Positions 1-37,392 of a DNA stretch of 64,000 nt are shown one piece after another. The first letter of the stretch is position 1. The number at the start of each line of letters is the position of its first letter. The DNA is from Naegleria gruberi (lineage: Eukaryota). The DNA lies in NCBI GenBank assembly GCA_000004985.1, contig GG738886.1; one strand, 5' to 3'. Under the pieces are notes generated by a model. It did no database searches, was not told the origin of the DNA, and saw only the letters and a list, made by a program, of their open reading frames with translations. Both the position numbers and the translations under genes were made by a program.

Positions 1-1012
1 TATGTTTATTCAATGATTCCTTTTGATAGTCATCATAGAAGTCCATTACTTTACAAGCCTTGTGAGCAAAATAAACAAGTCCAAGTCTGGTTCCTGAAGT
101 AATAGGAGCAACTTGATGTTTATATTTGTTGCCTTTGAACAATAGCAAATCACCAGGTTTAACAAATACCTTACAATTTTGCTCTGGAAACTCCAAATAC
201 CCTTCTTTCTCATCATAATCTCCCAAGTAAAATAAAACACTAGGTGTAGCATCACGGGTGTCCTTGTGAGCATTCTTGATTCTATGTTTCTCTATCTGTG
301 GTTCTAAATAGTTAAAAGCAGTGGATGGATAAATACAATTATTCAAAATATGATATGGGTGTGGTAACGATGTCAAATAATTAATTGTTCTTGGAGAGAG
401 TATTTCCAATGCAGCAGTAATTGTTTCATCTAGCATTGGATTTACAATTCCAATTAAATATTCTCCCAACTGTGTCTTTAGATCTGATGTAATATAATTC
501 ATAGGCATGTTATTCTCCAAAACTCCACTGTATCCATGATTTTTCTTTCTTGCCTCTTGGATTTTTAATAAATTTTCATTAAATTCCTGAATAATATCCT
601 TTTTCAACACTCCCGGTAAGAAAGCAAGATCTATTTGACCATCTTTCGAAATAATAAAATGTGGACTTGTTATTTTAGTAAACCACTTTTCCGTGTTAAA
701 TATTAAATTACTATTACTATAATCAACATTAAATTTCCGTTTTAATTTCTTTAATAATCCTTTAAGTCTGGTTTTTTTATAAAGACCACCCTTTTCACCT
801 TTTTTCACAGTCAATGATTCCTGCAAATTCACCGACACGGGTCCTAAGGAATGCGTATCAGTTAAAAGGCTAGTAGATGGCTTTTGTCTTTTGTTATCAT
901 TTTTGTTGTTGTTATTGTTGTTCCTTCTTTTCGTTATTGTTGTTATTGATGTTGTTGTTCTTGATGTTTGTTGATGACATTTTTTATTGTTATTTCTTGT
1001 TGACCGTTCTTG
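1..1012 (-). CDS. TET/JBP-family 2OG-Fe(II) dioxygenase (NgTet1-like), 3' end beyond window, no in-frame ATG
   Basis: Uninterrupted minus-strand frame from 1012 down to 1. The translation ...TDTHSLGPVSVN...TEKWFTKITSPHFIISKDGQIDLAFLPGVL...HGYSGVLENNMPMNYITSDL...SPRTINYL...LNNCIYPSTAFNYL...AHKDTRDATPSVLFYLG...EGYLEF..NCKVFVKPGDLLLFKGNKYKHQVAPITSGTRLGLVYFAHK closely matches, from memory, Naegleria gruberi Tet1 (HxD...H...R..LVYFAHK catalytic signature). The ORF track missed it because the frame lacks a start codon. Confidence 0.85.
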
Positions 1013-3812
1013 TCAACGCAGCAAACGCTGCTGTTGTTCTTCTGACTTCAGACACAGCTTTCAATTTTCCTCTTGTTCTTTGCTGTTCTTCATCTACATG
1101 TTCAGCAGCAGTCTTGTTAGTTGGGATGGTGTTTACCTTGTTTGTGGAAATGTGGTATTCTTCTAAATCTGCTGGTACAACAACAGTTCCTTGACAACAT
1201 TGGTGTGGTTGGAAAAGTCTTGTATCTGCTTCTCTCTCGCATAGCTGTTGAAGAATAACTTCATCATTATTCAATTTTACAGTATAATCTTCCTTCAATT
1301 CTTCCAATCTCTTTTTCGTTAACGACCGTGGATGTGGTAAAAGGAAGGTGTTTGGTAGTATTGTTGTTAACAAGAGTATTCTAAGTTTTCGTAGTATCAC
1401 TTGAGCAAGTAATTTCCCCTCCAATCCTAATGAAATGATGGTTCTCTCTTCAACAGGCTGAATACTAAAAACCTTCTTCAATAAATCTTTGTTTTCATCA
1501 ATACCAAAATCCATTCCACTTGGAAGAACAACACCATTGGAACTAAACATTTGTGAATAATCTTTGGTGTTCGAAAATAAGGAATCATGGTAGGTGTGAA
1601 GATGACCACCACCTTTGCTAGAGCCGAAGTTAATCGTGTCCAATTCTTCAATATGACTACTCTCGAAAGCCTGTGTTTCGAAGAGTTTAACATGACCAAC
1701 TCGTTCTTTCAATGGGATGATATGTTTCACCAAAATGTGTGCATACCATGACTTTCCAGGAAATCCTTGTACAGTAGTGATATATAATTTCCAGAATTTT
1801 GAAAGAGAATCGGAAAGAACATCCATTGGCTTATCATAATCAATGTTGTGAAATACCTGTTTCAAACTATGCCATAAATCCTTTGTTTTCTCAGATTCAA
1901 AGAATGGAGCCATTACATTAATGTTTTCTAAAAGAGTATTACAAGTATTGCCATGCAAAAATATTCTCACTTCGTTCCAATCCTCATCCTCCACCTTATT
2001 AATATATTCTAAACCCTTAATTTTTGTAACGGCAGTCCAAAATTTCTCCTTTTCTTTCATTCCACTCAAAGTAATTCTTAGTATATTTTCGCATAATCTT
2101 TCCTTTGCATGAAGTACACAAATAATAATATTACTCGCTGGTAATCCCAATATACATCCAAGCTCTGTTAGTGTTCGTGGTCTGTGATGTTTGGTGCAAA
2201 TTGGGAATGTGATATTACAAAATGGACACCAACTATCCTGTTTAACTCCAGGACAAACTTCACCGAGAGCTTTCAAGTCCATCGTAAGGAAAACATCTAC
2301 ACTGCAATGATACGATCCAATAGTAATACCATTCTTTCTTATAATCTCAATCTCCTTTTTAAAATGCTCAGCTACATGTTTGATTTCTCCTTCATCTCCC
2401 TTCCAAATGGCCAGTGGTGCACATACAGCTCTGGACTGACCGGTTCCAAAACATTTACTGTTAATAACAGTAATATATATCGTTGTCAATTTAGAATTTG
2501 CTGCATAATCCAAATTCAATGCAACAATTAAATCTTTTGTTTCCTTTTTGTCTTGTTCACATAAAGGCCGTCCCTTATCTTTCATCCAACCAATCCACTT
2601 CTTATGTTGCAGAGCGTAACAACATAGTGTTGGGAAAATTGAATGGTATATTAATTTACCCTCTCCTTCTAATGTCAACACTTTCAAATTGAAAAAGTCT
2701 GAACAAAGCAAATCAGTTGATGACTGAGCATGTTGAAGAATACTTGATGAAGAGAGATCATTAACATTTCCTTCATTTCTAAACATGTCAACTGTTTTGT
2801 TGGAAACCTGTTGTCTATTCTTCACCACCACTTGCTTAAGGATTGTTGTATTAATTGTTGAGCTATATGTAGGTTTTCTTTTCTTCTTTTTGGGTGTTTC
2901 TTTTCCAGATTGTTGTACCTTTTCTATTTTTCTTTTTTGAGATTCTTCCCATTGTTTTCCCTTGATTTTTGAAATTTCTACTCTCTCATTCTCAAACACC
3001 TTGTCAGTGGAAGTGGTTTTTTTGGTTTGATGGGATGTTTCTTGTTTCGAAATAAATCCCTCTTCATGTAATCTCTTTTTATCCAATAGATCATTCCTTA
3101 GAAGGATTCCAAGAAATGAATAAATGTTAGTAAACCCCTCCATCTTTGCTAATAAATCATGACCACCTAATCTCATCAATAATCTTTCACCTTTTTTGTT
3201 TTTGGAAGTTATTTTCGAATAATCACTTTTCTTGTACTTGAATGAATTTGTTAAAATGTTGTCCTTCATCATGGTCAACCCAAAATGGTCCTTAATATCC
3301 ATATAATACCTCAAACCATCTGGTTCCATGTATGTCTTATCGCTGGTAGATCCTTTTCCAATGATGTTTTCAATTGGTTTGGAATTTTTAGAATAATATT
3401 GATTTATTATTCTTGTGTTCCATTGGTCAACCATATTTGGAGAGACAATATTTTCTTGGCCTGAATTTGAGGTAGATGATATTGGAATGGTTTGAGATGG
3501 AGGAGGGTAAGAAAACATTGTTTGTGCAACAGTATGTGAAGTAGTTGATGGTTGTGAGTGGAATGAATTTTGATGAAACATGGGCGGAAATTGTGTTGAG
3601 TATGGAAAGATTGTTTGGGGAGGAAATGTTGGCGTATTGTAGTTAAAATAGGGATTGTGAAAGGGATTTATAAATGATTGGTCTTGTGATGGTTGTGGCT
3701 GTGATTCGATAATTGGTGTTTGTGACGAATATGTTGTGCTAATGTTATCCAGGTCCAATACAGAAGTCCAACCACTCTCCGATTGACAATCATCATGATG
3801 GCAATATGTCAT
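990..3812 (-). CDS. 940-aa protein with RAG1/Transib-like RNase-H/zinc signature (candidate transposase-derived), low-complexity N-terminus
   Basis: ATG at 3812, TAA at 990-992. The segment ...LIVALNLDYAANS...CFGTGQS...SYHCSVDVFLTMDLKALGEVCPGVKQDSWCPFCNITFPICTKHH resembles the RAG1 region around D708 (FRGTGYDEKLVREVEG...CTLCD; zinc ligands C727/C730): acidic residues on predicted strands, a D.K...EV motif, and C..C 17-20 residues after the Asp followed by HH. The family assignment is an inference. Confidence 0.5.
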   Translation of the reverse strand: MTYCHHDDCQSESGWTSVLDLDNISTTYSSQTPIIESQPQPSQDQSFINPFHNPYFNYNTPTFPPQTIFPYSTQFPPMFHQNSFHSQPSTTSHTVAQTMFSYPPPSQTIPISSTSNSGQENIVSPNMVDQWNTRIINQYYSKNSKPIENIIGKGSTSDKTYMEPDGLRYYMDIKDHFGLTMMKDNILTNSFKYKKSDYSKITSKNKKGERLLMRLGGHDLLAKMEGFTNIYSFLGILLRNDLLDKKRLHEEGFISKQETSHQTKKTTSTDKVFENERVEISKIKGKQWEESQKRKIEKVQQSGKETPKKKKRKPTYSSTINTTILKQVVVKNRQQVSNKTVDMFRNEGNVNDLSSSSILQHAQSSTDLLCSDFFNLKVLTLEGEGKLIYHSIFPTLCCYALQHKKWIGWMKDKGRPLCEQDKKETKDLIVALNLDYAANSKLTTIYITVINSKCFGTGQSRAVCAPLAIWKGDEGEIKHVAEHFKKEIEIIRKNGITIGSYHCSVDVFLTMDLKALGEVCPGVKQDSWCPFCNITFPICTKHHRPRTLTELGCILGLPASNIIICVLHAKERLCENILRITLSGMKEKEKFWTAVTKIKGLEYINKVEDEDWNEVRIFLHGNTCNTLLENINVMAPFFESEKTKDLWHSLKQVFHNIDYDKPMDVLSDSLSKFWKLYITTVQGFPGKSWYAHILVKHIIPLKERVGHVKLFETQAFESSHIEELDTINFGSSKGGGHLHTYHDSLFSNTKDYSQMFSSNGVVLPSGMDFGIDENKDLLKKVFSIQPVEERTIISLGLEGKLLAQVILRKLRILLLTTILPNTFLLPHPRSLTKKRLEELKEDYTVKLNNDEVILQQLCEREADTRLFQPHQCCQGTVVVPADLEEYHISTNKVNTIPTNKTAAEHVDEEQQRTRGKLKAVSEVRRTTAAFAALTRTVNKK

Positions 3813-3880
3813 TATGATATTTCTTTTTGAAATATTTGAAAAAACCGTTACAGAAATAATTTAATTAAATGTAAATTTTA

Positions 3881-4567
3881 TTAGAAGAAATGGAATTCAT
3901 CTTCATCATCGTACTTTATCTTCGTATCATAAGCAAAATGCATCGTGACTTCACCAGATTCAGTATCAAAAATAAAGGAAATGTTCTTCACTTGTAAAAG
4001 ATATTGGGTAACAATGTAGTTGTCCTCTATCTGGGTGGCACTAGTAATGACTTGTTGACCCCAGTTATCAAATATATCCAATACAGGAAGATGAGATGTA
4101 AATCTATATCCAATACAAGGAACCTTATACTTAATGCCATGTCTTGTAACTGTTCTATCAGAGTGGAAAAAGGTAGCACCTAACATGCTTTGAAACATGA
4201 CTTGAAATACACCAAGTTCAACAGAGCCACATCCAACGTAACTTCTTTTATCAATACCTCCCAACTTCAGCAATCTATTGATTTTCACTCGAGCACAATT
4301 AGCCAATACTTGGAATGATCTGGCAGCAAAATCTTTCTCACTTTCGCATAAATCGTCATATGTGGTGGAAAGAGGTTGGATTCTTGGTAACCCGTGTTCC
4401 ATGATGATGTCTTTGAAGTCATATGAAGAAGTTTCCTCCTTTCGTTGTTGTTGGATTTGGAGGTCTACATGGTTGTTTGTTGGTGAAGTAATTGGCACAT
4501 CAAACATATCGATATCACCTTCATCCAAGATGGTCTCAGTGATATATACTTGTTGTTGTGTATTCAT
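3881..4567 (-). CDS. hypothetical protein (228 aa)
   Basis: ATG-initiated intact ORF with a compact intergenic fit. It contains VGCGSVELGVFQVMF, which weakly recalls the hG[GS]...h[DE]h[DE]h nucleotidyltransferase motif with the acidic residues replaced. Confidence 0.5.
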   Translation of the reverse strand: MNTQQQVYITETILDEGDIDMFDVPITSPTNNHVDLQIQQQRKEETSSYDFKDIIMEHGLPRIQPLSTTYDDLCESEKDFAARSFQVLANCARVKINRLLKLGGIDKRSYVGCGSVELGVFQVMFQSMLGATFFHSDRTVTRHGIKYKVPCIGYRFTSHLPVLDIFDNWGQQVITSATQIEDNYIVTQYLLQVKNISFIFDTESGEVTMHFAYDTKIKYDDEDEFHFF

Positions 4568-5083
4568 TGTGTTTGTTGGTTTTTTTGTTGTTGTTGTTGG
4601 TAGGAGAGAGTGATAGGGTCGTTCATTTTATAGTCTTTTTTTTTGTAAGAAAAATCATCATTTTCTACCAGGCTTAGCTTGGCCAGGGCATTTTTAGCTT
4701 TGATGTAAATTTCTAGTGATTCATAATTTTGAACATTGAAAAGAGTTTATTATGTTGATAATTGCTCTGAATCCACTTACCTCTGAGGTGACATCTTACA
4801 TTGGAGCAAATTCTGCTGCGCTAGTTGAAAGAAGATGGAAGAAGCAGTTGCTACTGAAATAATGGAAAGAAATATTATTAAGGAATTGTTAATAATAGAT
4901 GAGGTTAACATCAACCATTCGAATACATAACATGAATTGCAAATAGAAGACAAATGGCTTCTAGGAGCACATAGAGAGAGCACTCCATAACATTTTAGGT
5001 TTTGAAAATTAAAGTTCAACATTGTTCGATTCTAATTAAAAAGTTGCAAACAATTTTACCTTTCAAATTATTCATAAAAAAAA

Positions 5084-5994
5084 ATGGGCAATAAACAATC
5101 TAACCATCATCATCACCAACAACAACAACAGTCTTCTTCCACGAGCACCTTCACACCAACAACTATTCCGGTTTCTAATGAAGAGGCCTACAGAAGAGAA
5201 ATGGAAATTTGTAGACAATACGAAATTGAAAGTAAGATGAGAGAAATGCATGAAGCCAAGTTTCATCAATATTCGGAAAATAAGGAGCCAGCATTGCAAA
5301 ATCTTCAATTGGTATTAATAATTGATCACTCTGGATCAATGGGTTCTTTTGGTAGGTTTTTTTTGTGAAATAATTTTTATTCTAATTGGAAACTGAACAA
5401 GATGAGGATGCAACAGGTCAAAATCGTTCCAAGGGCTTGGTTGATTCTAATCATTGGACACGTTATGATAATGTTATTCAAGCAGCTAAATATCTTTCTG
5501 AAAGTATATTTCAATATGATAAGGATGGAAAGGTACCACTTATTTTCTTTGATTCAAATGTTAGAGAAGTGATTGTTGACAGTATTCCAAGATTAGTTGC
5601 TGCATTTGAAAAAAATCAACCAAATTCAAGTACCAATTTATTAGGAGCTCTTGAATTAGCATTTAAAAATCATGTTAATGATCATGAAAATGTATTATTT
5701 ATTGTTTTCACAGATGGTAGTCCTAACGGAGGTCAAGAACCAAAAATCAAACAATTAATTCAAGACAAGTTGACCAAACCAGATCCTAATGGAAACAGAT
5801 TGAATATTTTATTTATTCGTCATGGTGATGATATCTCTGCAATTAATTTTTTGAAACATTTGGATGATTGTGAGGCAATTGGAAATAATGTTGACACCAA
5901 GTCAGATAATGCTATTTATGCTCTTGGACCAAAGAATTTAATTCTCAATTCTATATTTGAACATATGGATGCTGAATTTTTACAATATGTTTAA
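5084..5994 (+). CDS. N-myristoylation-motif vWA (copine-like, MIDAS DxSxS) protein, 2 exons
   Basis: The N-terminus MGNKQS is a myristoylation consensus. Exon 1 (5084..5351) ends ...LVLIIDHSGSMGSFG at a GTAGGT donor. A 50-nt intron (5352..5401) ends ..caag. Exon 2 (5402..5994) continues in frame as a vWA fold (TRYDNV...IVFTDGSPNGG). Confidence 0.7.
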
Positions 5995-6384
5995 AATAAA
6001 TTGATTACTTTCATGTTTTAACTAAGAATCTGAAAATTGAATAGCAACAATAAAAAATGATATAAACAGTTTCGAATAGATTTCCAATATTAGTGATCGA
6101 CCTTTACAATGATAAAAATACACAGGTCGTACCTTAACCTAGTCGTACCACTTGTCTCTTTGTAAACTCTCATCCAATATTCTGCTTCTTACTGATTTAC
6201 TAAACAAGACACAATACCACATTAATCCCATAATTGAAAATGGAACTCTATTTTCTCTGCTCCTCAAATTCATTTCCATTTCTTCAATTATTATTTATAA
6301 TTCAAGAAAAAAAAGTTTTTATATTCACTACTAACCCACAGAGAAAGGTTTTAAATTTCCAATTGTTTTTTATTGAGTGTGTTG

Positions 6385-6810
6385 ATGTCGAGATATGCTT
6401 TAAAGCCACCTGAAGGTGATTTTTCCTATAATAATAATATTAATCATCATCAACAAGTTCCTACACAAGGTGTTGCTGTAGCCTATGATCAACAACAATT
6501 TCCTTCCAATACAACCATGATGATGATGGCACACCAATATAATAATAATAATAATTACATGATGAATGCTTCTAATAATAATAGCATGGTAATTCAACCT
6601 CCTCCTCCATCTCAAGCCTATGTTCCTCAACAAGAACCCTACATTCCATCACATTATATTGTTGATGGTGTTTATGGTACTGGTGCTGGAGGCTCGGGTG
6701 GTGCTAATACTGCTACAATTATTCAATACTCCTATGATAATGGTAATAATAATGCTAAAGCTCATGATTGGAATACTAATCCTAATGGTGGTTGTTGTAC
6801 CATTTTGTAA
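6385..6810 (+). CDS. low-complexity Q/N-rich protein with C-terminal CaaX (CTIL) prenylation motif
   Basis: ATG at 6385. Asn/Gln/Met-rich. The ORF ends ...GGCCTIL followed by stop. Confidence 0.45.
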   Translation: MSRYALKPPEGDFSYNNNINHHQQVPTQGVAVAYDQQQFPSNTTMMMMAHQYNNNNNYMMNASNNNSMVIQPPPPSQAYVPQQEPYIPSHYIVDGVYGTGAGGSGGANTATIIQYSYDNGNNNAKAHDWNTNPNGGCCTIL

Positions 6811-28811: not shown

Positions 28812-30845
28812 TTATAAAGATTTCTTTTCCAAATCAACTCCACAGTAATATTTACAATAATCGTAGAGGATCTTGGCAAGATAATTGGAGGAGAATGATG
28901 GCATTGGATTTCCCTTCTCTTTGGCTTCTTTTACAGCTTTGAGAATGCCATTATAATTGTCCATACAGAGCTTTTTGGATGAAATTGGATTGGTAAAGAC
29001 GAATTTCTTATTGAGGAAACCACCAAGGTTACAAGTTCTAGCTTCAACATAACGAGTTCTGTACTTGTCAACCATGTTGTAAATTCTGGAACCAACAAAT
29101 GGACACTTGATCAAATCCTTGATTTCTTCATTCTTGACGAAATCACTTGATTTGAATAGGAAGGCGTTTTCAATAAGTTTCTCACCATGGAAATGAGATT
29201 TGCTTGAAAATACAAATTGAACTCCTCTCAATGAGAATAGCGGACCAAAATCAAACTTGGAAGTCATAATTACAGCTGGATACTTTTGAATGGAGCTTGC
29301 AGCATTAATTGGAGTATAGTAATGCCATTGGACATTGTGGAAACAATATTCAAGATGACTATCAAAGTGTGTAGATTTCACAACGTCATTAATTGGATGA
29401 TCAAAATAACCAACAATCTTGGAATTTCTCAATTCTAAATTATCTCTGGAGTGATCTTCATCTGAATTCCATTGCATTACATTTGGCAATTTGGAATAGG
29501 TTAAATACCAATCACCACCATGTTCCCTACACATCCAATTTGAAAAGTTCCAATCACTGTCAATAACATGCTTGATATTCAAATCTTCATTATTGAACTT
29601 GAATTCTCTGTTGGCCTTCTCATTCTTCTCCTTCTTCTTTCTATAGATTTCAACAACATATTTTGGAAGATTTCCATCAACCAAACCATTCTCAAACCAC
29701 TTCCTGACCTTCTTGTTTTGTTTAAATTCAAAGATTGCAAACCAATCACCCAATTCTAATAGGAACATGTTACAAATGAGTTTAATTTCATCAAGCAGAC
29801 CAACAGTGAATCTATTCTCCTCAGAGATGGTTCCTCCAGTGCTATGAACCAACTCTTCCTTAGAGAGAAGTGCATGTTTTGGATCTTTACAATTCACACT
29901 TTGAGCTTGTAAGAATTCTCTCAAGTACACGTGTCTGAATAGTGGAGTATGATCCAATTGACTTGGTAGATACTTTAAATAGAACCATACCTTATCTGGT
30001 GATTCACTTTTAAGCTTTTCAATTTCAACAGATTCGTATGGCATCTTTAAAGCAATCAAAACTTTACAAAACAAATCCAATCGACTGAAAACAGCTTCAC
30101 TCGATTTGAAAACCTTTGATGGAACTTTCTCATTAATTGGATCAAAGAAATGTTCCAAAAACATCAACTTGATCTCAAATTCATTTGCCATCTTTGCTTG
30201 ATCTTCACAATAATCAAGGAATTTGTGTTTCAAATTTTCAATAATTTCATCACTGTTAGTTTTTGGAACTGGTTGATCTTGATAGTAAAAGTTTTGATGA
30301 TAATATGGTACAGAACTGTTGTGAGTGGTATTTAGTGGATTGGCTTGACAGTTATTTGGTGAGATACTCAAGTTATTTGGATTAGGTTGAGCATTGTTTG
30401 GATCTTGTAAACTGGAGAATGAATCAGACGAATCTGAATGGCCAGATTCAGAAGAATCGTATAGATTCGAACCAACAATACTTGTTGGTGTGGTACATTC
30501 AGCTGAATTTAAACTACCAGAACTGTTTCCATACATATTTATGAAATACTCCTTATCAGTGGAGCCAATTGATGAAGTACTATTGTTGACAGGACTTCCA
30601 GGTGAATTTCCAGTACCATGATTAGTGACATTTAGAAATAAATTGCTAGAGGAAGTATCTTTTGATTTGGAACTACCTGATGAGCTAGTAGAAACTGCAC
30701 ATGAACTTAAATTAGTTGAGTTATTCAAAAGATTTGCATATACCACACGTGGGTTGAGTAGAATGGTGACTGGAAGGATGAGTGGTTGTTTGTTTGGAGT
30801 TAGTTGAGTAGTTTCGTTTTTGGTGGATTTTCTGTTGTTGGCCAT
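28812..30845 (-). CDS. START-like lipid-binding domain protein with Ser-rich N-terminus (paralog A)
   Basis: The C-terminal 330 aa are paralogous to 40503..43109 (KWFENGL...EIYRK...HVIDSDW...LTYS...FSLRGVQFVFSSKS...NLGGFLNKKFVFTNPISSKK). Confidence 0.6.
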   Translation of the reverse strand: MANNRKSTKNETTQLTPNKQPLILPVTILLNPRVVYANLLNNSTNLSSCAVSTSSSGSSKSKDTSSSNLFLNVTNHGTGNSPGSPVNNSTSSIGSTDKEYFINMYGNSSGSLNSAECTTPTSIVGSNLYDSSESGHSDSSDSFSSLQDPNNAQPNPNNLSISPNNCQANPLNTTHNSSVPYYHQNFYYQDQPVPKTNSDEIIENLKHKFLDYCEDQAKMANEFEIKLMFLEHFFDPINEKVPSKVFKSSEAVFSRLDLFCKVLIALKMPYESVEIEKLKSESPDKVWFYLKYLPSQLDHTPLFRHVYLREFLQAQSVNCKDPKHALLSKEELVHSTGGTISEENRFTVGLLDEIKLICNMFLLELGDWFAIFEFKQNKKVRKWFENGLVDGNLPKYVVEIYRKKKEKNEKANREFKFNNEDLNIKHVIDSDWNFSNWMCREHGGDWYLTYSKLPNVMQWNSDEDHSRDNLELRNSKIVGYFDHPINDVVKSTHFDSHLEYCFHNVQWHYYTPINAASSIQKYPAVIMTSKFDFGPLFSLRGVQFVFSSKSHFHGEKLIENAFLFKSSDFVKNEEIKDLIKCPFVGSRIYNMVDKYRTRYVEARTCNLGGFLNKKFVFTNPISSKKLCMDNYNGILKAVKEAKEKGNPMPSFSSNYLAKILYDYCKYYCGVDLEKKSL

Positions 30846-36244: not shown

Positions 36245-37392
36245 ATGTTTCTATCATTCAACAAGCCCTCTGCACTTTCGTCTACTTTCGAATCAAACAA
36301 TGCCAGCTCTATTGTTTTCACAATGACTGACTTTGATGATTTAATTTACTCGGCAATTGATCAATCCTTCTCCTTCTTCTTTATGGCAACTTTTATTTTA
36401 CTAATTTTACTAATTGTTGGATTTTCCATAAAAAGCGATTGGAAAACATTAAAAAAAAGTCAAAAAAATATAATTTTAATGATTTTGACATTGTTGACAA
36501 CTCAAATGATTGGACTGTCAGGGAGAACAAGTTATAATTTTATTGACATTTCAATTTTGACAAGATATGAAAATTATTTAACTGAGAATGGATATACAGA
36601 GAATGATCAACTGTATATTGATGTAATTGTGAATGGAAATGACACTTATTTGACAACTGACATGGTGGGAATACCTTATGCAGATGTAGTTGGATTATTT
36701 CTCTCCAAGTCAATTGAGGCATTTTTCATTTTATTTGGATTAGTGATAATTAACATGGTTTTACATTACATTTCACATTTATTCTTTAATTTAATCAAAT
36801 ATTCACAAGGAGTTTTGAAATCGAATAGAACTAGAGTTATTCGAATGATTTTTGACACTGTCATGTTTATTACTTATTTCTTTTACTTTTTATTATTGAC
36901 TGCCATATTTATATTATTACTCATTGAGAATTTGAAGATAATTCATAACATCCAGTTAATTTTCTTTATCATTTCATTTGTTTTATTTGTTTTCCAATTG
37001 CTTTCTCAAACAATATTTTCATTGGTAAGTAATTTATTCCTACTTTCGTATAAAAATTATTGAAATAGATTGTAGCCATGATAGTTCTTTCAATTATTAA
37101 TCAATCAAGAAAGAAATTCAAAGATCAAACAAATTATTCATGGAAACAACCAATTGTGAAAATTGTAATTTTACAAGCAATTATGATATTTTCATGTTTT
37201 ATTCAAATTATTGCGATTGGATTTGGAGTTGTCATTTCTGCTTGGAATAATTCAGCATTGATTTATGACTTTTTAAATAATTTGGGAGTTTTGATATTTT
37301 CTATATTGGTATTGTGTTTGTATCATCCTTCGTTTGACTTTTTTAAGAATGAGAATGTTCGAATGAGGCTTAATTGTCAAAGTTTAGAATAA
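36245..37392 (+). CDS. multi-pass membrane protein, 2 exons (about 367 aa)
   Basis: Exon 1 (36245..37024) ends at TTG|GTAAGTAAT. A 44-nt intron (37025..37068) precedes exon 2 (37069..37392), in frame. Confidence 0.55.

Follow-up and report, generated by a model that had tools for sequence, protein, structure and literature searches.

A Tet-like dioxygenase gene, probably with its start one base out of frame, beside a gene for a predicted RAG1-fold, CACTA-type transposase in Naegleria gruberi

NgTet1 from Naegleria gruberi is a structural and biotechnological model for Tet enzymes. In other organisms, genes of the TET/JBP type are found on mobile elements. Kojima 2025 (PMC12730594), citing Iyer et al. 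2014, describes TET/JBP genes on DNA transposons in fungi (KDZ, Plavaka, EnSpm, ESTA and others), and in Chlamydomonas CMD1 occurs in the elements DNA-1_cRei and Helitron2 (bioRxiv 10.1101/2022.06.16.496473). We found no report of a TET-carrying transposon in Naegleria in the literature searched, which did not cover Iyer et al. 2014 itself. Here we describe such a candidate at the left end of a 64,000-nucleotide (nt) stretch of N. gruberi DNA (contig GG738886.1 of assembly GCA_000004985.1; "the window"). The locus would be one copy of a CACTA-type DNA transposon that contains ORF1 (228 amino acids, aa), a 940-aa open reading frame (ORF) for a RAG1-fold DDE transposase and, at the 3' side, Tet as cargo (Table 1). 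Tet would be a gene of its own that is expressed separately, and would not form a domain of the transposase. Its Asn-rich N-terminal tract would hold a frame error of a single base that parts the start from the catalytic domain. We think it fairly probable that this is an independent cargo gene with its start one base out of frame, either a very young pseudogene or a gene with a 1-nt error in the reference sequence. Because the start is out of frame, the reference gene cannot make Tet by ordinary translation.

We found that the 940-aa ORF has the residues by which DDE transposases of the CMCT clade are defined (PMC12730594). In a four-sequence alignment, D435, D512, C529-x2-C532, H692-x4-H697 and E717 are invariant. 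In a family alignment of 19 sequences, conservation of the Cys and His is 90% or higher, and most members also keep the acidic residues. The series in the family alignment reads D (LNLDY), D (SDLKAL), CPxC, CxLH, YxHxxxxH and E (QGFExxH). An AlphaFold2 model of residues 290-860, made with the family alignment, predicts a RAG1/Transib-like three-dimensional fold (predicted local distance difference test, pLDDT, 82; predicted template modeling score, pTM, 0.82). We also compared the family profile to the sequences in PDB. Below E 1, solely RAG1 and RAG1L were found (best E 0.003), and the match aligns Y-x-H-x4-H...G-x-E with the block of RAG1 that contains the zinc-binding histidines and the catalytic glutamate. 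This match probably reflects the whole CMCT clade and not a specific relationship to RAG, because PDB contains no structure of a CACTA or KDZ transposase.

A full HMMER scan of 1.84 billion representatives yielded 37 relatives of the 940-aa ORF. A third protein search, word-indexed and done with the family profile, added solely a match from N. fowleri, and two metagenome scans (one with Tet and one with the transposase as query) found nothing. There were no Pfam matches to the three ORFs in the window (ORF1, the 940-aa ORF and Tet). Among 39 family members, Pfam gave weak hints: Ulp1 protease in two, and sub-threshold matches to Transposase_21 and Transposase_23. Two distant, long relatives (P0029 and P0033) have a C-terminal Ulp1 (Peptidase_C48) protease domain. 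Ulp1 protease is an accessory domain in several transposase superfamilies.

We compared the locus to related loci from N. lovaniensis (L001) and N. fowleri (two loci, L004 and L005) and to three metagenome contigs (L002, L003 and L007). Among these relatives there are elements with terminal inverted repeats (TIRs) and with Tet inside them. L007 contains a complete element at 437-6762 (6326 bp) with perfect 13-bp TIRs, CACTAGAGAGTAC and GTACTCTCTAGTG; L007 is a metagenomic assembly and may be chimeric at repeats. The element holds ORF1 (241 aa), a transposase that is 44% identical to that in the window, and a Tet of 328 aa (5709-6695) that is 48% identical to the window Tet. This Tet is on the opposite strand, lies inside the TIRs, and has its own ATG ~100 nt from the right terminus. 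The element in L003 is 99.84% identical to that in L007, and the flanks past the right TIR differ. That is, L003 and L007 are two insertions of a mobile element. An apparent subterminal motif at the start of L003 proved to be flanking DNA; the true terminus is at L003:71.

The trio of ORF1, transposase and Tet recurs in the window and in L003/L007, with Tet in either orientation. Homologs of the 940-aa ORF without Tet are found in N. lovaniensis, N. fowleri and L002. In the Tet-free element of N. lovaniensis (L001, 4965-8998; 4034 bp, with perfect 13-bp TIRs, CACTACAACTTAC at 4965 and GTAAGTTGTAGTG to 8998), the right TIR comes directly after the transposase, where Tet would be. The TIRs of L001 and L007 begin with 5'-CA at both ends, as expected for CACTA-type elements. 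We read Tet as a separate gene because the Tet in L007 has its own ATG, is on the opposite strand and lies inside the TIRs. We read the locus in the window as an element of this kind because its gene trio is the same and its left end (CACTAGAAATTTAC) is similar.

It is also possible to view the locus as a deletion junction. A host Tet gene would have stood beside the element, and a deletion would have removed the right end of the element together with the promoter and start of Tet, leaving a 5'-truncated relic for which the ATG at 980 is a coincidence. The ~140 nt of right subterminal sequence and TIR found in N. lovaniensis and N. fowleri are indeed absent between 990 and 870. However, the same trio occurs in L007 with Tet within the TIRs. 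The tail and stop of the transposase are intact, and the deletion would have to begin a few bases from that stop. In addition, homology to Tet, including the invariant K-x-x-T ahead of LTxTH, reaches 883. We regard a deletion junction as quite unlikely.

The Tet frame in the window encodes an entire catalytic domain. Frame analysis confirmed the initial annotation of a Tet frame that has no ATG, is reached from the frame of the 940-aa ORF by a +1 shift, and is open from 1012. Its codons start at 1012, 1009 and so on, and it has 0 stops, compared to 25 and 38 in the remaining minus-strand frames. The alignment with NgTet1 (PDB 4LT5) covers ~874-2 (residues 30-323; E 1.4e-96) with 51% identity. 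The frame has the signature of TET/JBP proteins of the NgTet1 type: the double-stranded beta-helix domain, the HxD...H Fe(II) triad and the Arg that binds 2-oxoglutarate (2OG). The YFAHK strand of NgTet1 is also kept. By homology and intact catalytic residues, the window Tet is predicted to be an NgTet1-like 5-methylcytosine (5mC) dioxygenase. The first in-frame ATG is codon 169 (508-506), which is deep within the fold, with none earlier. Thus, the frame lacks an in-frame start codon, and the two ATGs upstream, at 980 and 900, are in the two other frames.

The sequence between the transposase and Tet suggests where the start may have been lost. An ATG that had been placed at about 970 and called the only one nearby is at 980-978, 9 nt past the stop of the 940-aa ORF; the 22-codon ORF that it begins, in the frame of the 940-aa ORF, was described correctly, and another ATG, in the third frame, is at 900-898. 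All nine AAY (Asn) triplets between 968 and 935 share the register of ATG 980, and the eight between 922 and 895 all follow the Tet register. Between these runs lies GAAAAGAAGG, a spacer of 10 nt (3n+1). Judging from this change of register, the error would most likely be one extra base in GAAAAGAAGG (932-923). ATG 980-978 is probably the ancestral start of Tet, although both the choice of ATG and the site of the indel are deduced from sequence. With one base removed, the frame reads MSSTNIKNNNINNNNNEKKNNNNNNKNDNKRQKPSTSLLTDTH..., and K-x-x-T before LTxTH is retained. From 977 to 880, the sole GT lies inside ATGTCA, so no intron can rescue the ORF that starts at ATG 980. A 1-nt indel giving a stand-alone ORF with an ATG, which the initial annotation had listed as an outcome that would argue against its own proposal of a fusion, is what the sequence most suggests. 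Frame-breaking lesions are found in sister copies too. The transposase in L007 is split (579+395 aa), though this copy is 99.8% identical to the intact copy in L003, and the transposase in N. lovaniensis is shifted ahead of its tail.

Several points weigh against this interpretation. The Tet domain is flawless, with 0 stops in 337 codons, and every invariant column of a four-sequence alignment is kept in the window copy (as it is by definition). Therefore, either the lesion arose very recently or some unseen route still yields the protein. ATG 980 lies within an A-rich motif, AATAAAAAATG, that resembles TATAAAATG upstream of ORF1 and AATAAAAATG upstream of the L007 Tet, and could be a promoter element instead of a start. 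ATG 900, one base short of the Tet frame, is a possible alternative start that would require the loss of one base in the A-run at 897-881. The repaired N terminus begins MSST..., that of NgTet1 begins MTTFKQQ and that of P0005 begins MTTHNTEKKNK; the likeness is low-complexity and weak. There is no clean target-site duplication of 2-5 bp, the length expected for the CMCT clade, at the relatives (the flanks are TGA/TCA in L001 and TAC/AAA in L007). Lastly, the right end of the window copy would lie beyond position 1, and it is by comparison with the relatives that Tet is placed inside its termini.

The flawless Tet domain is the main fact that keeps readings other than a pseudogene alive. One of these is unconventional translation of an intact gene, by a programmed +1 ribosomal frameshift from the ORF that starts at ATG 980 (for example at CAA-TAA-C, 917-911) or by a start at a near-cognate codon of the Tet frame (such as ACG at 934-932). 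The domain is perfectly preserved, as this would predict. In addition, both the ATG-980 frame and the Tet frame are open over a shared ~65 nt, and skipping one base at the stop would yield an uninterrupted protein. However, we found no known shift motif or stimulatory RNA element. There was no Rfam match at E up to 1, and the RNA of the region 1000-840 has no stable structure (minimum free energy -3.1 kcal/mol, z +1.2) and folds no better than shuffled sequences. The AAY register changes before the stop codon, a better fit to an indel in the DNA than to a shift of the ribosome at the stop. Naegleria is not known to use programmed frameshifting. Unconventional translation is in our view unlikely.

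Alternatively, the Tet coding sequence might have a further 5' exon at another place in the element, for example one spliced in from the ORF1 or the transposase unit. The model for ORF1 in N. lovaniensis spans 909 nt for 230 aa, apparently with an intron, and the genes are very tightly spaced (15-114 nt from ORF1 to transposase across copies), both of which are consistent with an exon of this kind. Such an exon would need an acceptor in front of the Tet domain, and the region 1012-870 has none with a pyrimidine tract or TAG, just weak AAAAG sites. The Tet in L007 needs no such exon. We consider a distant 5' exon improbable.

Table 1. Features of the transposon-like locus, in window coordinates (all on the minus strand)
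Feature	Position	Strand	Remarks
ORF1, 228 aa (XP_002674107, NAEGRDRAFT_80703)	3881-4567	minus	exact protein match
940-aa ORF	990-3812	minus	RAG1/Transib/CACTA-type (CMCT clade) DDE transposase; stop TAA 992-990
Acidic residues of 940-aa ORF	D435 (2510-2508), D512 (2279-2277), E717 (1664-1662)	minus	
Cys/His residues of 940-aa ORF	C529/C532, C565/H568, H692/H697	minus	
C-terminal tail of transposase, 48 aa, VNTIPTNKTAAEHVDEEQQRTRGKLKAVSEVRRTTAAFAALTRTVNKK	993-1136	minus	lies within proposed intron
Proposed intron GTAAAC...AAAAG, 256 nt	881-1136	minus	judged not an intron
22-codon ORF, MSSTNIKNNNINNNNNEKKEQQ and stop	912-980	minus	frame of 940-aa ORF; ATG 980-978, stop 914-912
Spacer GAAAAGAAGG	923-932	minus	10 nt (3n+1), separates the two AAY runs
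Second ATG, ORF MITKDKSHLLAF and stop	898-900	minus	third frame, one base short of Tet frame
Open Tet frame	1-1012	minus	337 codons, 0 stops, continues past left end of window
Fe ligands of Tet	H249 (268-266), D251 (262-260), H299 (118-116)	minus	conserved
2OG-binding Arg of Tet	R309 (88-86)	minus	conserved
Inferred left end of element	4620-4718	minus	homology to left ends of N. lovaniensis, N. fowleri and L003/L007
Candidate TIR CACTAGAAATTTAC	4718-4705	minus	~13 nt uncertainty from alignment

The initial annotation had proposed that an intron fuses the transposase to Tet. Such a fusion, of ~1190 aa, would be made by removal of the 256-nt intron (1136-881) or of another GT-AG intron, perhaps in an alternative transcript. 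The donor AAG/GTAAAC is where it was placed (1137/1136). The acceptor is not at ~872: the AG is at 882-881 and the exon would run from 880. The junction, ...EEYHISTNK joined to PSTSLLTDTH, is in frame as described, and the 1185-aa product has no stop. In addition, the Tet frame begins near the stop of the transposase (9 nt after), and a shared transcript is conceivable. There is also a precedent: the maize CACTA element En/Spm makes two proteins, TnpA and TnpD, by alternative splicing.

In contrast, the splice signals are poor. We counted 49 in-frame GT...AG combinations that would connect the 940-aa frame, over its last 500 nt, with the Tet frame. The proposed intron is one of these; with so many, an in-frame GT-AG pair is expected by chance. 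None of the 49 has a donor with G at +5 and T at +6 (GTRNGT), and GTAAAC has A and C at these positions. We recognized introns elsewhere in the window as abutting long open frames on one strand with a GT[AG]NGT donor at the end of the first, a small sample that is selected for this pattern. These introns are 37-113 nt long, and all have donors GTAAGT, GTATGT or GTAGGT (clear examples are at 37025, 34527, 33267, 32035, 17226, 12886 and 28135). GTAAAC does not have this local form. Thus, there is no good splice site that joins the transposase to Tet.

The proposed intron would also remove conserved coding sequence and a stop. When the window ORF was compared to the transposase in L003/L007, a single high-scoring segment pair extended to residue 939. 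The 48 residues past ...ISTNK align without gaps to the last 47 of the homolog (30% identity over 47 aa), and the stops coincide; the tail on its own gave E 6.6e-4, a value obtained in a very small database. The N. fowleri protein P0025 is a continuous ORF that ends in HYTISTLNRVVPEGSNLNQYLEDETARTEGMLIPVAKAKRVEPAHALARRRKQRNK and a stop, with a 47-aa tail of similar length after the same ISTxN motif. We count the tail as coding because of the homology to L003/L007 and the continuous ORF of P0025. Direct BLAST of the window tail to the loci of N. lovaniensis and N. fowleri was not significant, and a likeness, seen by eye, of the window tail to the frame-shifted tail in N. lovaniensis was therefore dropped. 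The N. lovaniensis model C9374_014194 (907 aa; L001:8700-8860) ends in ...ISTLNRVA and a stop, and the next frame continues with a tail of the P0025 type. This model is shortened by a 1-nt frameshift that is either a real mutation or an assembly error.

There was no protein combining both parts in the databases searched, and Tet lies on the opposite strand in L007/L003, where the L007 copy has an ATG of its own. Based on these results, we do not retain the splice fusion and consider it highly improbable. The frameshift in the A/CAA-rich tract, or pseudogene, that had been offered as the other explanation fits better. It joins the ORF at ATG 980 to Tet and not, as had been suggested, the 940-aa ORF. 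More broadly, we judge it very unlikely that a hybrid of transposase and Tet, or a frameshifted Tet, is made by a non-consensus intron, by splicing like that of En/Spm or by a +1 shift. If this were true, a 5mC oxidase would be tethered to the transposase and aimed at the element's own methylated DNA. That is, the transposon would erase its own silencing mark.

The other parts of the element in the window resemble those of the relatives. ORF1 is always directly upstream of the transposase, in the same order in L001, L002, L003, L004, L005 and L007. Identity among homologs is 48-69% for ORF1 compared to 33-56% for the transposase. ORF1 has no Pfam domain and no significant match in PDB by sequence profile, and a structure model from the single sequence was uninformative (pLDDT 37). 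One possibility is that ORF1 is a DNA-binding or TnpA-like partner. At the left end, the candidate TIR CACTAGAAATTTAC is next to a conserved subterminal block, AAATGATGATTT...TATAAAATG, and the homologous left ends have the TIRs CACTACAACTTAC and CACTAGAGAGTAC. The left end is preceded by AAT. An inverted copy of CACTAGAAATTTAC would read GTAAATTTCTAGTG on the minus strand; there is no such partner within the window. We rejected an inverted repeat at 869-902 and 4935-4968 (34 nt, 71%) as a TIR pair. It is the longest inverted repeat in 1-5300, and its inner arm stops exactly where homology to Tet starts, but the outer arm falls outside the left end set by homology (4718), and a match this good is close to what chance would give.

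An A-rich motif that ends in ATG (TATAAAATG or AATAAAAATG) is found ~50-60 nt upstream of the start codon of ORF1 in four species. In the window it is at 4624-4632, with a similar motif at 978-989 around ATG 980, and in L007 it is at about 6705-6720, upstream of Tet. Such a motif may serve the transposon as a promoter or initiator element instead of as a start codon. Adjoining the inferred left end of the transposon there is a vWA-like gene (5084-5994, plus strand; DxSxS motif IIDHSGSM) in two ORFs with a short intron (donor GTAGGT at 5352).

Between the N. lovaniensis and N. fowleri copies, DNA identity is 96% and the neighbors differ, and N. fowleri has a second locus. Over 3.2 kb, L001:4965-8998 and L004:1752-6952 have 96-98% DNA identity although the genes on either side are unrelated. 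This may indicate that the element was active very recently or passed from one species to the other. Among the N. fowleri copies there are partial duplications and deletions. One copy has a perfect tandem duplication of 1670 bp (L004:1722-5071) of its left part, which includes the TIR, ORF1 and the start of the transposase. The duplication adjoins a stretch of N, and could be either an artefact of assembly or genuine.

Our results correct the annotation of the locus. Eight of 10 long ORFs in the window are exact EFC/XP proteins of N. gruberi NEG-M, on a scaffold of 358,576 bp. In the 5.8-billion-protein database searched, there is no N. gruberi protein model for either the 940-aa transposase or the Tet ORF. 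The best identity there was at most 56% for the 940-aa ORF and at most 52% for Tet, with no protein from any assembly above these values. Elsewhere in the window (28812-30845, minus strand), a 677-aa ORF is exact in ENA/Logan assemblies, and EFC41368, in the same 90% cluster, has only 300 aa. The reference model EFC41368 may be truncated.

It is most likely that the closest detectable paralog of NgTet1 in the same genome sits in a CACTA-type transposon with a RAG1-fold transposase. If this is confirmed, Heterolobosea would join fungi and green algae as groups in which TET/JBP cargo is linked to transposons. Such a finding would also support the notion that mobile elements carry demethylases against silencing by host 5mC, and it would suggest that the Tet family of Naegleria may have spread on transposons.

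The locus can be compared to four kinds of known systems. The window Tet is like NgTet1 (PDB 4LT5, 5CG8/5CG9), which is from the same organism, over the whole catalytic domain, including HxD...H, the 2OG Arg and YFAHK. It differs in that it has no in-frame start, has an Asn-rich N-terminal tract that is ~12 aa longer, is 9 nt downstream of a transposase gene, and has no protein model in the database searched. Compared to RAG1, the RAG1L of ProtoRAG and Transib, the similarity of the 940-aa ORF in sequence is marginal (E 0.003, one block). The Naegleria element has no RAG2-like partner (ORF1 is 228 aa), and its termini are of the CACTA type. With maize En/Spm it shares a CACTA-type structure, more than one protein and tightly packed genes; unlike En/Spm, it has no credible splice signals, and Tet is on the other strand in L007. 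The fourth kind is the TET/JBP transposons of fungi and Chlamydomonas. In these, as in the elements described here, Tet-carrying and Tet-free relatives coexist, and some of the fungal TET-positive families have a gene for a "third protein" (Harbinger-type). The Naegleria element differs from them in its host, a heterolobosean amoeboflagellate, in its NgTet1-type cargo, and in an ORF1 without a recognizable domain.

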